In this document: in pieces, positions 4,430-7,589 of the stretch | Position numbering within the stretch: position 1 is the first letter of the stretch | Layout of the letters: the number at the start of each line of letters is the position of its first letter | Origin: Bacteroidota bacterium | Lineage (GTDB): Bacteria; Bacteroidota; Ignavibacteria; UBA10030; UBA8401 | Direction: 5' to 3' | Assembly: GCA_041665525.1 (NCBI GenBank) | Contig: JBAYIS010000004.1 | Span: 46,996-110,995, forward strand | Length of the DNA: 64,000 nt | Made by a program: the position numbers and the translations under genes | The notes under the pieces: generated by a model | Told to the model about the DNA's origin: nothing | What the model saw: only the letters and a program-made list of their open reading frames with translations | Database searches by the model: none

Positions 4430-5494
4430 TTGGTACGCAGGATCTTGATTCCCGCACTTTGTATAATCACGTTTGCATTCCCGCAGTCACAACATTATTT
4501 CTATTCCGGACCCCGTGCCGGATCGGAAATGATGTACAATCCTGTTACTCTGATTTTGAATGGCAGTTATGATGTGCTGCAATTCGAGGGGGAAACGAAA
4601 CATCTCGATATGGTTCGTTACCGGCAAGCCGGTGCTCAGGTGATCTATAATCTTACGAGTCCATTAGCCGTTATATCCCGGTATGGAGGTTCAAAATTCC
4701 TCCGGCAGGAGCTGCTTCCGCTCTCTTTCACTCCTACCAAAATGCAATGGTGGCCGAATTACAATCTGCATCTTTTGGGAGGCGGGATGACGTTTGTGAA
4801 GATGACGGAATGGTACGATTATTATGGATTTCCGAATCCCCAAGTGTCATCACTGGCGACTATGGCAGTCTACCACTATCTGAATGAAGTGGTCGAAATG
4901 CGGAATCACACAGGGGATAATGTCGATCCGATTTCGGATGTTTACATATTCGACATCGGCGGGATTCTGCTCTTCAGTTCGGACAATGTGAAACAGTTTT
5001 TTAGTCAAACAGTGGTGATGTCCGACTGGTCCGGACAGCCTCTCTTTTCACTTCGGGACGGGACACTTTCCAACAACGGACAATTCTTTTCCTTCAAATG
5101 GAAAATTCCGACACTCGATCACTGGCATCTCTTCTATCTCTCCGGTGTGGAAGGAATTGTCGGTCTGTCATATAGAAAAGATGATGGTGCATCGATTTCC
5201 GCCGCTGCCGGTATGATCGGATCGAGGAGGAATACGCTGAACCGTCACACGTTTGAACAATCTGTCAGTCTGCAATGGCGTGCCGGACTGTTTTATGACC
5301 AGGACAATTCACTCCTTGCTTCGCTCTATGTCAGCGGACTTCCTACCGAAATGATCAAGCTCAATATCTATCCTGGTTACATCGATTTTGCCGGGCTCTT
5401 CTTTGGAGGAGTTCTCAGTGTCTCGCAAAACGGACATGCAACCTTTGGTTTGACGATGAATTGGTTCCCCGGTGTATCAATGTCCACCAACTAA
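4430..5494 (+). CDS. Hypothetical secreted/outer-membrane protein (TTG start as listed; start uncertain)
   Basis: A 354-aa ORF with a hydrophobic N-terminus (ILIPALCIITFAFPQ). No recognisable catalytic motifs. Confidence 0.45.
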   Translation: MVRRILIPALCIITFAFPQSQHYFYSGPRAGSEMMYNPVTLILNGSYDVLQFEGETKHLDMVRYRQAGAQVIYNLTSPLAVISRYGGSKFLRQELLPLSFTPTKMQWWPNYNLHLLGGGMTFVKMTEWYDYYGFPNPQVSSLATMAVYHYLNEVVEMRNHTGDNVDPISDVYIFDIGGILLFSSDNVKQFFSQTVVMSDWSGQPLFSLRDGTLSNNGQFFSFKWKIPTLDHWHLFYLSGVEGIVGLSYRKDDGASISAAAGMIGSRRNTLNRHTFEQSVSLQWRAGLFYDQDNSLLASLYVSGLPTEMIKLNIYPGYIDFAGLFFGGVLSVSQNGHATFGLTMNWFPGVSMSTN

Positions 5495-5620
5495 AAATTA
5501 CTTTGAGAATGCTTGTGAATGTGTGTATTTTGTTTTCACTGTTTGTCACGGACAGAGTCTACGACACAATTATCTTTTAAGTCAATTGAATGGTAGTGAT
5601 TGTCTCGAAGAAATTCATAG

Positions 5621-5785
5621 ATTGAATCATTGAACCATTGAATCATTGTAACATTGCAACATTGAATCATTGAATCATTGAATCATTGAATCATTGCAAC
5701 ATTGAATCATTGAAACATTGAACCGATGAAACAATGAACCGATGAATCAATGAACCGATGAACCGATGAACAAATGAATCAATTT
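5621..5785. repeat. 8-bp tandem repeat array, about 20 units. Unit family: ATTG-N-A-N-C (aatcattg / caacattg / taacattg), grading into GATGAAAC / AATGAAYC variants.
   Basis: Read directly from the sequence: ...attgaatcattgaaccattgaatcattgtaacattgcaacattg...gaaccgatgaaacaatgaaccgatg... The array ends about 15 nt before the four-helix-bundle gene start. Confidence 0.85.
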
Positions 5786-5799
5786 CTCGAGAGGTGTTC

Positions 5800-6162
5800 A
5801 TGTATCAACAGGAAGAGCTGAAGCTTCGTTCGAAGAAATTCGCATTGCAGATCATTTCATTGTTTAAGGCATTACCGAAATCTGATGATGCGAGAGTGTT
5901 GGGAAAACAGTTGCTTCGTTCCGGGACATCAGTTGCGGCAAACTATCGGGCATCATGTAGAGCAAGATCAAAAGCGGAATTCATTGCGAAGATCGGAATT
6001 GTCGTTGAAGAGGCCGATGAGACTGTTTTGTGGATGGAAATGTTGACCGAATCCGGGATACTTCCGATACAAAAAACAGAACTGTTGTTGAAAGAAGGGA
6101 ATGAACTGCTAGCAATCTTTGCAGCATCGTACCACACGGCTAAATATGGAAAAAACTCTTGA
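5800..6162 (+). CDS. Four-helix-bundle protein (TIGR02436 family: 23S rRNA intervening-sequence protein, DGR Avd-like)
   Basis: LGKQLLRSGTSVAANYRASCRARSKAEFIAKIGIVVEEADETVLWMEML matches the family signature (R-S-x-x-S-V-x-A-N-Y-R-A-x-C-R-x-R-S...EF...EEADET). The RBS gagagg sits 7 nt upstream of the ATG at 5800 (the listed ORF begins at a GTG at 5794). Confidence 0.85.
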   Translation: MYQQEELKLRSKKFALQIISLFKALPKSDDARVLGKQLLRSGTSVAANYRASCRARSKAEFIAKIGIVVEEADETVLWMEMLTESGILPIQKTELLLKEGNELLAIFAASYHTAKYGKNS

Positions 6163-6165
6163 ATT

Positions 6166-6457
6166 GAAACATTGAAACATTGAACCATTGTAACATTGAA
6201 TCATTGAAACATTGAAACATTGAAACATTGTAACATTGCAACATTGAATCATTGCAACATTGAATCATTGCAACATTGAACCAATGAATCAATGAACCAA
6301 TGAATCAATGATCCGATGAACCAATGAACCAATGAACCAATGAACCAATGAACCAATGAACCAATGAACCAATGAACCAATGAATCAATGAACCAATGAA
6401 TCAATGATCCGATGAACCGATGAACCAATGAACCAATGAACCAATGAACCAATGAAC
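6166..6457. repeat. 8-bp tandem repeat array, about 36 units, from the same family as 5621-5785. First come the CATTG-type units (gaaacattg / taacattg / caacattg), then the CAATG/CGATG-type units (gaaccaatg / gaatcaatg / gatccgatg).
   Basis: Read directly from the sequence. It begins 3 nt after the four-helix-bundle stop and ends 11 nt before the ddl ATG. Confidence 0.85.
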
Positions 6458-6467
6458 TATTTTTTCT

Positions 6468-7589
6468 ATGAATAAATTAAAAATCGGAGTTCTTTTCGGC
6501 GGCCGCTCGGCAGAACATGAAGTCTCTCTCGTTTCTGCTGCTTCTGTTATCAATGCACTGGATAAATCGAAGTATGACGTAGTTCCGATCGGAATTACAA
6601 AAGACGGCAGATGGCTGCATGCAGTAAATGCAATCCAACTGCTGAAAGATCATTCACCGATCGAACAACTTCCCGAACATGTGTTGCTGCCAGATCCGCG
6701 CAAACAGTCACTCGTAAATATCAGCGGTGCGTTTCCGCAAAATGCACAGAAGATTGATGTCATCTTTCCGGTGATTCATGGGACCGGAGGAGAGGATGGA
6801 ACGATTCAGGGATTATTCGATCTGGCTGATATTCCGTATGTCGGCGCCGGCGTACTAGGGTCTGCCGTTGGCATGGATAAAGTAATTGCAAAACAGTTAT
6901 TGGAAAATGCCGGCCTTCCGGTAGCGCCGGGAATATCGTTTCTCTATTCTCAATTCCTAAAAAAACCAAAACAGTTTGTAGAGAATATTGAAAAGAAATT
7001 GAAGTATCCCTGTTTTGTAAAACCACCGAATCAGGGATCGAGCGTCGGTATCAGCAAAGCGCACAATAAAAAGGAACTGATTGCAGCAATCCATCTTGCC
7101 GGGGAATATGACCGGAAGATTCTGGTGGAGAAGGCTGTTCTGAAACCGAGAGAGATCGAACTCAGTGTGATGGGGAATGACGAACCGATGGTCTCTCTGC
7201 CTGGAGAAATCGTTCCGTCCAACGAGTTTTATGATTATGATGCAAAATATGTGGATGGAAAATCGGTCGCACATATTCCGGCAAAACTCCCTAAGACTGT
7301 TATTAAAAAATTGCAGGAGTGTGCATTAAAAGCGTATGCAATTCTGGACTGCTCCGGAATGGCGCGAGTTGATTTTCTTGTCCAGCGGAACGGGAAGATC
7401 TTTCTGAATGAGATCAATACTATCCCCGGTTTTACTTCCATCAGCATGTATCCGAAAATGTGGGAAGCGTCCGGCATCCCGTATCCCGAATTGCTGGACC
7501 GGCTGATCGGCTATGCTATTGAACGGCACACGACGAAAAAGAATTTAAAAACAATATATACACCAAAAACAGATTGGTATAAAGAATAA
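6468..7589 (+). CDS. ddl: D-alanine--D-alanine ligase
   Basis: The N-terminus [24 protein letters not shown] and the ATP-grasp core are consistent with Ddl. The ORF is 373 aa. Confidence 0.9.

Follow-up and report, generated by a model that had tools for sequence, protein, structure and literature searches.

Introduction

Four-helix-bundle proteins of the S23p/TIGR02436 family are encoded in intervening sequences (IVSs) of 23S rRNA genes (Leptospira, Coxiella, Xanthomonas, Brucella). The IVS sits in an rRNA helix. Flanking inverted repeats form a stem, and the ORF occupies its loop, in the sense of the host transcript. In Coxiella, the stem carrying the S23p ORF is cut by RNase III, and polymorphic tandem heptamers are located upstream of the ORF (PMC4990558). 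The same fold occurs in Avd of diversity-generating retroelements (DGRs), a pentamer working in complex with structured RNA and encoded next to a reverse transcriptase and TR/VR. To our knowledge, the family has thousands of members, two crystal structures and a function known only in DGRs.

Tandem units of 7 nt are described from intergenic and intercistronic spacers as STRR sequences (cyanobacteria) and as GGGAATC and GGGGA(T/C)T heptamers (Xanthomonas, Nostoc). Hairpins or inverted pairs are frequent among them; the repeats commonly have about four units, vary in length between strains and are reported without an associated gene. Over-represented tandem repeats of 7–8 nt in cyanobacteria, Xanthomonas and other bacteria have been used for decades in strain fingerprinting. 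REP/REPIN repeats are dispersed, short, palindromic and intergenic, also within operons; the associated RAYT is a single protein gene flanked by inverted repeat copies. In the open-access literature, no paper linking the TIGR02436/PF05635 gene family with flanking repeats was found. The architecture described here links this family, obscure in function, to short tandem repeats, the purpose of which has been a puzzle since 1990.

Description of the locus

The window (the whole stretch of DNA analysed) is 64 kb in length. Period-8 arrays are present at 5621–5783 and 6163–6457 (TRF), with no other comparable array. Flanking of a four-helix-bundle ORF by 8-bp arrays, claimed in a sequence-only reading, is real by TRF, register parse and 21-mer patterns. 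One continuous 8-nt register parses both arrays, into 20 units on the 5′ side and 37 on the 3′ side; the earlier counts of about 20 and about 36 were right for the former and one unit short for the latter. The 5′ array consists of an A block (5621..5724, + strand; 13 ATTGnnnn units, CATTG core) and a B block (5725..5788, + strand; 7 (A/G)ATGnnnn units, CAATG/CGATG core, then terminal AATTTCTC). The end motif of this B block, TCAATTTC, is shared with arms of relatives, at their 3′ ends. The 3′ array consists of an A block (6163..6282, + strand; 15 ATTGnnnn units) and a B block (6283..6458, + strand; 22 (A/G)ATGnnnn units), which stops 9 nt short of the ddl start codon. The CATTG to CAATG/CGATG switch is present in both arrays in identical order, in agreement with the internal polarity noted earlier. 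It is one base change at unit position 2 in the window's lineage, so that the blocks are near-direct and near-inverted copies simultaneously. Patterns of 21 nt for the two block types gave 24 and 20 matches, all confined to the two arrays (dinucleotide shuffles, 0). Gene-less copies are absent from the rest of the 64-kb window.

The copy number in the window is derived from one metagenome-assembled contig and differs from that of its 95%-identical relative. The ENA, JGI and Logan assemblies of the closest relative have identical arrays, which speaks against an artefact of assembly in that case. A promoter and terminator scan gave nothing exceeding shuffle expectation. No Rfam family reached gathering score in the 64-kb window or in 13 related loci; sub-threshold matches were to miRNA-precursor-like hairpins.

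The gene between the arrays (5800..6162, + strand) encodes 120 aa. The length of 121 aa given earlier is incorrect, while the assignment to TIGR02436 holds: scores are above the curated cut-offs for TIGR02436 (E 5e-23, 81.3 bits; cut-off 24) and PF05635 (E 8e-16, 58.6 bits; cut-off 33.8). The AF2 model is an up-down bundle of four helices (pLDDT 95.1). The best fold match by Foldseek is 2rld (E 4e-6, TM 0.81–0.90), and 2gsc is also matched; both solved relatives have five chains in the crystal. Avd shares the fold (TM-score 0.72–0.75 to 4dwl, query-normalised; match to the DGR ribonucleoprotein 8ub7) at only about 10% sequence identity. Profiles, model and Foldseek thus agree with the membership in the 23S-IVS/Avd family recognised from the letters. 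Xcc0516 is reported to be a pentamer of four-helix bundles. By analogy, the protein encoded here may form a homopentameric toroid.

A Shine-Dalgarno-like GAGAGGTG (5789..5796, + strand) ends 3 nt before the ATG, with its AGAGG core 5 nt before it, and is kept in orthologues (gagagg / ggagg). The TGA stop overlaps GAATTGA, the first bases of the 3′ array. dN/dS is 0.047 at dS 0.95, with synonymous sites saturated. The protein is under strong purifying selection.

The upstream co-directional gene (4430..5494, + strand; 354 aa) has no Pfam match and is given as context; relatives have a beta-lactamase-like gene in its place. The downstream gene is ddl, for D-Ala-D-Ala ligase (6468..7589, + strand), which follows the cassette as a conserved anchor in 6 of 6 orthologous loci. 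No transposase, integrase or reverse transcriptase was found nearby (Pfam scan, ten large ORFs within 1–12.9 kb).

Description of the architecture in relatives

Relatives were collected as 85 non-redundant loci from Acidobacteriota, Bacteroidota, Ignavibacteriota, Chlorobi and Binatia, which are not independent because many are orthologous. Repeat flanks, sought there as the sequence-only reading had proposed, are present. A significant inverted repeat surrounds the ORF in about 80% of the 85; it spans the ORF in 68 of 83 testable loci (median score 39; shuffles 14, direct similarity 15). Units are 8 nt long, N-ATTG-NNN in the 5′ arm and NNN-CAAT-N in the 3′ arm. An ATTG run is present upstream in 71/90 loci and a CAAT run downstream in 50/90, most seeming exceptions being degenerate or variant cores. 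Period 8 is best in 78/85 5′ flanks, 70/85 3′ flanks and 6/84 control windows. The modal arm has five units (31/53 5′ arms, 20/33 3′ arms), within a range of 3 to 37. The gene is co-directional with both neighbours in 58 of 78 loci. The median gap is 62 nt on the upstream side and 46 nt on the downstream side, space for an arm and a ribosome-binding site only. Cassettes occupy many unrelated operons, defence and cas operons among them, and also lie on plasmids. The repeated flagging of this gene family with CRISPR and defence systems may be due to insertion of the cassette into operons. Independent assemblies, complete plasmids and cultured strains all have the architecture.

Distant relatives have an identical layout with 7-nt units (Nostoc, Planktothrix, Treponema, gut Bacteroides). 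Unit sequence and period shift with the protein subfamily. Carriers in gut Bacteroides are 98% identical to the crystallised BT_0352, and two Bacteroides loci (L319, L320) differ in copy number with an identical protein. Units of Planktothrix are CCCCAAT / GATTGGG, sharing the GATT/AATC core with STRR and heptamer repeats. CCCCAAT is presumably the STRR1 heptamer. It is the probe unit in PMC4692102. In a search for recent transposition, two identical proteins (P0052, P0070) were each found in a single genomic context. ATTGA stops and CAATG starts were considered as an explanation of unit lengths indivisible by 3; this fits one locus (L313) but does not extend to unit types in general.

Hairpins of the same octamer units, but lacking the gene, occupy intercistronic gaps in operons; loci of Terriglobia and some IMG/VR contigs contain several each. 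Polarity is fixed (A-then-B 26, B-then-A 1), and 17 of 26 have 5-unit arms. Like the 3′ arms, they stop 2–19 nt upstream of the next start codon. A generic 5 x ATTG pattern proved unspecific in IMG/VR, returning 120 plain minisatellites with no four-helix-bundle gene and no second arm; a two-arm pattern recovered genuine gene-less hairpins.

Judged from these comparisons, the locus is an expanded, extreme example of an architecture found throughout the family. It is not unique; gene-less hairpins are akin to STRR and to Xanthomonas heptamer repeats.

Predicted pairing of the arms

With the pairing register chosen by maximising complementarity, 80.8% of cells are paired (shuffles 70.2 ± 0.7; slid controls 27–46%), and changes on both sides occur in 206 cells (shuffles 88 ± 8). 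Complementarity at variable columns is 0.667 with the element's own arm and 0.42 ± 0.02 with arms swapped between elements. The base preceding the core covaries (C-G, G-C or A-T). The arms are kept complementary through covariation. The ATTG/CAAT core is near-invariant and the spacers drift; constraint on the core seems to exceed the needs of pairing. Mismatches have no clear sense-strand bias (G:U versus A:C, 90 versus 62 in gene-bearing arms, 72 versus 76 in hairpins), so that selection could act on DNA palindromes.

Long-range pairing, looked for by RNA folding, was found. A closing stem is predicted in MFE and centroid structures of canonical elements, and in the window (z = −10), where the global fold beats the summed local folds by a predicted 29 kcal/mol. 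Both arm types there have A-rich spacers on the + strand, which leaves only 6 bp paired per 8-nt unit. Each array also folds on itself (−54.8 and −75.8 kcal/mol; shuffles −27 and −36), so that the IVS-like outer stem is one among several possible folds. Folding the whole region of the simplest orthologue gives no gain over shuffles (z = −0.7). The stem suggested earlier between the 5′ CATTG and 3′ CAATG blocks has in its favour one inverted repeat, covariation and predicted closing folds, but local self-folds compete with it.

Gain and expansion at the ddl site

The cassette is carried by ddl relatives at ≥85% identity. The search for empty sites proposed earlier yielded one of 13 nt in L219 (76% identical, same synteny), and 77 more distant ddl loci are without cassette; length differences of arrays, also proposed for search, exist between lineages and between Bacteroides strains. 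Empty and filled sites alike have CATTGA at the upstream gene's stop codon, and no clear target-site duplication is seen on comparing L219 with filled sites. The cassette was gained once upstream of ddl; at this site it is restricted to a small Bacteroidota clade and vertically inherited there. Stray arrays without a gene were looked for in the window and in 370 kb of related ddl-anchored genome sequence; arrays are located solely beside the gene. They are retained despite saturated synonymous sites. In simpler orthologues (L004, L009), as in most relatives, the upstream arm is all ATTG and the downstream arm all CAAT; L008 has tandem gene-less hairpins. The arms appear to have been inflated in the window's lineage.

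Comparison with described systems

As in 23S rRNA IVSs, an ORF of the same protein family is enclosed by an inverted-repeat stem, here on the evidence of predicted folds, arm covariation in relatives and the 68 of 83 loci. Unlike them, the locus has protein-coding neighbours and no rRNA in 64 kb (Rfam). In the Coxiella IVS, 7-mers lie between stem and ORF, whereas here the short-period arrays are themselves the arms; the Coxiella ORF is decaying, whereas the gene here is under strong purifying selection and has a ribosome-binding site. With STRR-type repeats the arrays share tandem units in intergenic position and, by predicted folds, the capacity for hairpins; the unit is 8 nt rather than about 7 nt. 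RAYT is an HUH transposase with a single-palindrome repeat; here a four-helix bundle, with no known mobilisation activity, accompanies periodic tandem arrays. A DGR was considered and rejected because no reverse transcriptase is nearby (Pfam scan, annotations of orthologous loci); as for TR/VR, TRF covered tandem arrays and gave no further one of comparable size in the window. TRAP and HutP resemble the system in mechanism only: a homo-oligomeric ring, a short-unit array upstream of start codons (its binding here being putative) and a modal unit number equal to the subunit number. Their fold is unrelated, and the repeats here also have a complementary second arm.

Interpretation

The preferred explanation, held at about even chances, is an operon-embedded, IVS-like cassette. 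The cassette would be transcribed together with the surrounding + strand genes. Its arms would pair in RNA into a long imperfect stem closing off the ORF, as in 23S rRNA IVSs. The stem would serve as a double-strand processing or insulation site, for RNase III by analogy, and probably also as a platform recognised by the pentameric protein. Excision of the cassette by RNase III is conceivable from the rRNA precedent; binding of the arms by the protein and mobility of the cassette are putative. In the window's lineage, replication slippage, possibly plus added gene-less hairpin copies, would have extended the arms to 160 and 300 bp. Each flank now holds arms of either type; with 6 A units in excess on the upstream side and 7 B units in excess on the downstream side, a canonical outer stem could still form.

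Overlapping with this explanation, and not exclusive of it, is a tentative reading in which the arrays are cognate sites. A homopentameric ring may bind five tandem 7–8-nt units of single-stranded RNA (or DNA) in a TRAP-like manner, in competition with the hairpin fold, and thereby regulate translation both of its own gene and of the next one downstream, with gene-less hairpins as trans-acting targets. Five is the modal arm in 5′ arms, 3′ arms and hairpins, as well as the chain number in 2rld and 2gsc and the state of Xcc0516, and Avd is part of a ribonucleoprotein with DGR RNA (8ub7/8ub8). The position of 3′ arms and hairpins just before start codons is also consistent with it, and papers on the Nostoc and Beggiatoa heptamers postulate a binding protein. 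But arms vary from 3 to 37 units; the near-invariant core among drifting spacers could as well be a nuclease or recombinase site; and plain co-inheritance would equally give unit sequence and period that follow the protein subfamily. Rather unlikely is a mobile element acting at the DNA level, with the arms as terminal inverted repeats, the protein as the element's factor or cargo, gene-less hairpins as derivatives of MITE or REPIN type, and tandem hairpins as the product of nested insertion into ATTGA-like targets. Presence and absence at the ddl site, CATTGA at the upstream stop codon in either state, the many unrelated operons, plasmids and defence and cas operons, dispersed gene-less copies at several per contig, the tandem hairpins of L008 and shared end motifs (AATTGA... 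at one end, ...TCAATT at the other) all suit such an element. Against it, neither mark of a MITE or transposon was found, the target-site duplication not being definable between L219 and filled sites and no transposase, integrase or reverse transcriptase lying nearby; identical proteins are confined to one context, inheritance is vertical across saturated synonymous divergence, and the fold has no known catalytic activity.

A contingency (phase-variation) locus, in which 8-bp slippage would switch the four-helix-bundle gene or ddl, is improbable. The arrays are long, near-perfect and surely slippage-prone; the window and its 95%-identical relative have different copy numbers, as do L319 and L320, and Coxiella heptamers vary among strains. 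However, the repeats are non-coding within a co-directional gene string, ddl is an essential housekeeping gene, and the closest relative's arrays agree in three assemblies. The contingency cassette offered by the sequence-only reading fares poorly for a further reason: it does not account for a design of two inverted arms, for their covariation or for the 5-unit mode across phyla. A neutral minisatellite or an assembly artefact unrelated to the gene is scarcely credible. Short units in long arrays make assembly difficult, and in a metagenome-assembled contig the exact copy number is uncertain; this affects copy number alone. An artefactual existence of the arrays is contradicted by their recurrence in independent assemblies, complete plasmids and cultured strains, by their position only beside the gene in 370 kb of ddl-anchored loci and by their retention while synonymous sites became saturated.

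Relation to other short tandem repeats

TIGR02436 pentamers could be the missing sequence-specific partners of 7–8-nt tandem repeats, a doubtful but wider proposal. It would cover the cyanobacterial STRR, Xanthomonas GGGAATC, Bacteroides AATTGAC and the octamers described here. Gene and repeats would form a self-propagating, intercistronic ribonucleoprotein module that insulates its neighbours or controls them post-transcriptionally, and 23S rRNA IVSs would be the special case that landed in rRNA. If true, three old puzzles merge: the function of S23p/TIGR02436, the origin of ORF-bearing 23S IVSs and the 7–8-nt repeats.

A unit sequence of the present locus is CAUUGAAU; as RNA, the Bacteroides and Xanthomonas units read AAUUGAC and GGGAAUC. 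BT_0352 is located in an arabinose operon, between araD and araA. Strains of Bacteroides thetaiotaomicron type and Nostoc punctiforme both carry the architecture, which is thereby directly open to experiment.

The window cassette

The 120-aa product of the ORF at 5800-6162 (+ strand) exceeds the curated cut-offs of both PF05635 and TIGR02436, in agreement with its assignment to the TIGR02436-type four-helix-bundle (4HB) family in the sequence-only reading. GAGAGG stands 5 nt ahead of the ATG. The AlphaFold model has four helices (pLDDT 95); its closest structural matches are BT_0352 (2rld) and Xcc0516 (2gsc), with Avd, the accessory protein of diversity-generating retroelements, more distant. 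Neighbours on the + strand are ordinary genes (MTHFR, class II aldolase, a 354-aa protein, Ddl, cNMP-binding protein, two-component system), with no reverse transcriptase, transposase, integrase, rRNA or tRNA among them. The upstream 354-aa ORF (4430-5494) is without a Pfam match and stands where other clade members have a beta-lactamase-like gene. The window comes from an uncultured Bacteroidota MAG (45.9% G + C).

The two 8-bp arrays previously noticed around this ORF were recovered by TRF and by reading of 5300-6800. Period-8 arrays occupy 5621-5783 and 6163-6457, one on each side; TRF finds no second array system of comparable kind elsewhere in the 64-kb window. Parsed in one unbroken 8-nt register, the 5' array consists of 13 ATTGnnnn units (A units), 7 (A/G)ATGnnnn units (B units) and a terminal AATTTCTC, the 3' array of 15 A units followed by 22 B units. 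21-mers of the two block types match 24 and 20 times, in the arrays only (shuffle expectation 0). The 126-nt spacer from the upstream gene to the 5' array (5495-5620) is conserved with the orthologous locus L001. Weak sigma-70-like matches occur in it at two + strand positions, 5503-5531 and 5543-5570, and the spacer is a possible promoter or leader of the cassette, i.e., the gene with its two repeat arms.

Architecture across the family

Eighty genome loci with encoded 4HB proteins 59-73% identical were taken, mostly from Terriglobia and other Acidobacteriota, also from Ignavibacteriota, Chlorobiaceae, Binatia, Bipolaricaulota and Chitinophagales. Repeat flanks were looked for beside the 4HB genes of these related genomes, and the same architecture is present in the sampled loci. 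An ATTG-core run with 8-bp spacing lies upstream in 71 of 90 loci, a CAAT run downstream in 50 and both in 46; seeming exceptions mostly have variant cores (ATCG/CGAT, AATTTGGT/ACCAAATT, CAGTGA/TCACTG). Independently of motif, a significant inverted repeat spans the ORF in 68 of 83 testable loci (110 nt each side). Self-similarity is highest at lag 8 in 78/85 5' flanks and 70/85 3' flanks, against 6/84 control windows. Arm order is fixed, ATTG 5' and CAAT 3' (hairpins 26 A-B, 1 B-A), and the modal arm length is 5 units. The gene-between-arms architecture is very probably real family-wide. Cassettes are packed in operons: in 58 of 78 cases both neighbouring genes share the orientation of the 4HB gene, and the median gaps are 62 and 46 nt. 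At L313 (1470-1885), in an arg operon with the order OTCase-4HB-argB, the upstream ORF takes its TGA stop from an ATTGA unit, and CAATG units supply the ATG start codons for 4HB and for the gene downstream of it. With units of 8 (or 7) nt, such start and stop codons pass through all three frames in three units.

Pairing of the arms

When the arms are aligned in register, about 72% of positions form Watson-Crick pairs. The core and the preceding base are paired in ~64-100% of cases, the three spacer positions in just 50-79%; the base ahead of the core covaries (C-G, G-C or A-T). Across 39 aligned arm pairs, 80.8% of cells are paired (70.2 ± 0.7 when shuffled; only 27-46% in slid controls) and both sides have changed in 206 cells (88 ± 8 when shuffled). 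Complementarity at variable columns is 0.667 for an element's own arms, 0.42 ± 0.02 for arms swapped between elements and 0.50 after a one-unit shift. Since the register was chosen for maximal complementarity and many loci are orthologous, these figures are somewhat inflated. G:U and A:C mismatches have no decisive strand bias, so palindrome selection at the RNA or the DNA level is compatible with the sequences.

The B unit of the window is an A unit with one base changed (ATTG to AATG) and both spacers are A-rich on the + strand; pairing there is accordingly 6 bp per unit, with 2 x 2 internal loops between. Self-folds of the 5' and 3' arrays reach −54.8 and −75.8 kcal/mol (−27 and −36 in shuffles). 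The global fold of the cassette is better than the local folds (−247.7 against −218.6, a gain of 29 kcal/mol) because 6 surplus A units of the 5' array and 7 surplus B units of the 3' array can pair. In the folding model these surplus units are able to enclose the gene in an outer stem of canonical size, and the locus is read here as a canonical cassette with inflated arms. Slippage is one likely cause of the inflation; accretion of hairpin copies, suggested by the tandem hairpins of the orthologous locus L008, would be another.

Hairpins of the A-loop-B type without a gene also occur at the family loci, typically of 5 + 5 units and ~90 nt. They span the whole gap from a stop codon to 2-19 nt before the next co-directional start, for instance between nuoE, nuoF and the following gene in Terriglobia. 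Examples with 5 + 5 octamers are L014 2878-2965, L016 2892-2969, L018 521-625 and 1140-1223, L025 2867-2945 and 4115-4219, and L082 538-619. A two-arm pattern search also found them in IMG/VR contigs, several per contig.

Orthologous loci upstream of ddl

Close homologues occupy the equivalent site, immediately 5' of ddl. L001 (4HB identity 95%) has shorter arrays in the same order (5' ~8 A + 6 B, 3' ~7 A + 9 B), without difference among three assemblies. L004 (83%) is a plain inverted repeat, with ~5 ATTG units only 5' and ~5 CAAT units only 3', and L009 (73%) is alike. L007 (84%) has additional A-loop-B hairpins, L008 (75%) three ~120-bp hairpins in tandem, upstream. In a metagenome scan anchored on ddl, hence sampled independently of the 4HB gene, the cassette is restricted to relatives with Ddl of at least 85% identity. 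L219 (Ddl 76%) keeps the synteny, with just 13 nt from the upstream stop codon to the ddl start, and 77 more distant ddl loci have neither the gene nor the arrays. This distribution points to a single cassette gain in a small ddl clade, loss elsewhere being the less parsimonious alternative. In this gene-independent sample of ~370 kb, arrays adjoin the 4HB gene only. The empty site (L219 2470-2510) reads tatcaTTGAatgtactatcgccATG. Around the upstream gene's stop codon, both this empty site and the filled site of L004 already have an A-unit-like sequence (CATTGA), which could reflect a target preference.

At dS 0.95, the 4HB gene has a dN/dS of 0.047 (ddl 0.014); by this measure the protein is functional. 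The non-coding arms are retained despite saturated synonymous sites.

Distant relatives

For more distant relatives in cultured organisms, plasmids were searched by tblastn and eleven loci were then inspected. The gene again lies between inverted arrays, with 7-nt units of very different sequence (5'/3'): Gloeocapsa AGATTTT/TCTAAAA, Chlorohelix GGATTTT/AAAATCC, Planktothrix GATTTAC and GATTGGG/CCCCAAT, Nostoc C057 GATTGCN/NGCAATC, N. punctiforme GTCGGAG/CTCCGAC, Treponema saccharophilum GGAGAGC-type/GCTCTCC, Euhalothece CCAGTGA/TCACTGG and Chondrinema CAGTNNN/NNNACTG. Several have both arm types on both flanks, like the window. Among the eleven, the Monoglobus locus has no arms and the Bernardetia arm pair is not clear. 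Close relatives of the crystallised BT_0352 sit in the order araD-4HB-araA; their 5' units are AATTGAC and their 3' units GTCAATT, in numbers that vary among strains with identical protein. Two gut Bacteroides strains (L319 and L320, ~1435-1500) encode an identical BT_0352-like protein, but one upstream array is three 7-nt units (21 nt) longer than the other, a genuine between-strain length polymorphism.

Role of the arms

The cassette is related to two known kinds of element, the 23S rRNA intervening sequences (IVSs) and the cyanobacterial short tandem repeats (STRRs). The Coxiella IVS has an S23p ORF within a stem that RNase III cleaves, and polymorphic tandem heptamers closely precede the ORF; IVSs have been suggested to derive from mobile elements (PMC4990558). 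STRRs are 7-bp units forming hairpins between genes. Xanthomonas GGGAATC and Nostoc GGGGA(T/C)T repeats are abundant, mostly of ~4 units and sometimes in inverted pairs (PMC4692102). Searches of the open-access literature yielded no tie between TIGR02436 genes and the STRR, Xanthomonas, Nostoc or Beggiatoa repeats.

The IVS-like interpretation of the sequence-only reading is partly supported, by the architecture, the covariation and the predicted stem; an RNA-stem or processing mechanism for the arms has an even chance. Binding of the repeats by the 4HB protein is a tentative proposal; for both the Beggiatoa TAACTGA repeats and the Nostoc heptamers, published work explicitly invokes a binding protein still to be identified. 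Mobility at the DNA level is unlikely to be the main role of the arms. Most likely the locus is an operon-embedded IVS-like cassette, its arms being the closing stem and probably the platform of the protein. Its presence in tractable model organisms makes it worth pursuing.

Host operons of distant relatives

Operons hosting distant 4HB genes include DISARM/BREX, cas1, type I R-M and RND efflux. Defence examples are drmD-4HB-pglX (L300, Planktothrix), DUF1156-4HB-Swt1 HEPN (L297, L299), hsdS-4HB-hsdR (L305) and a gene adjoining cas1 (L302). These settings agree with earlier accounts that place the family within cas loci, and such locations may explain its repeated CRISPR/defence scoring. In L302, a Pseudanabaena plasmid locus where a clear arm pair is absent, a ~35-nt higher-order repeat of five 7-nt units (365-594, ~6 copies) precedes the 4HB gene and cas1, and is mistakable for a CRISPR array.
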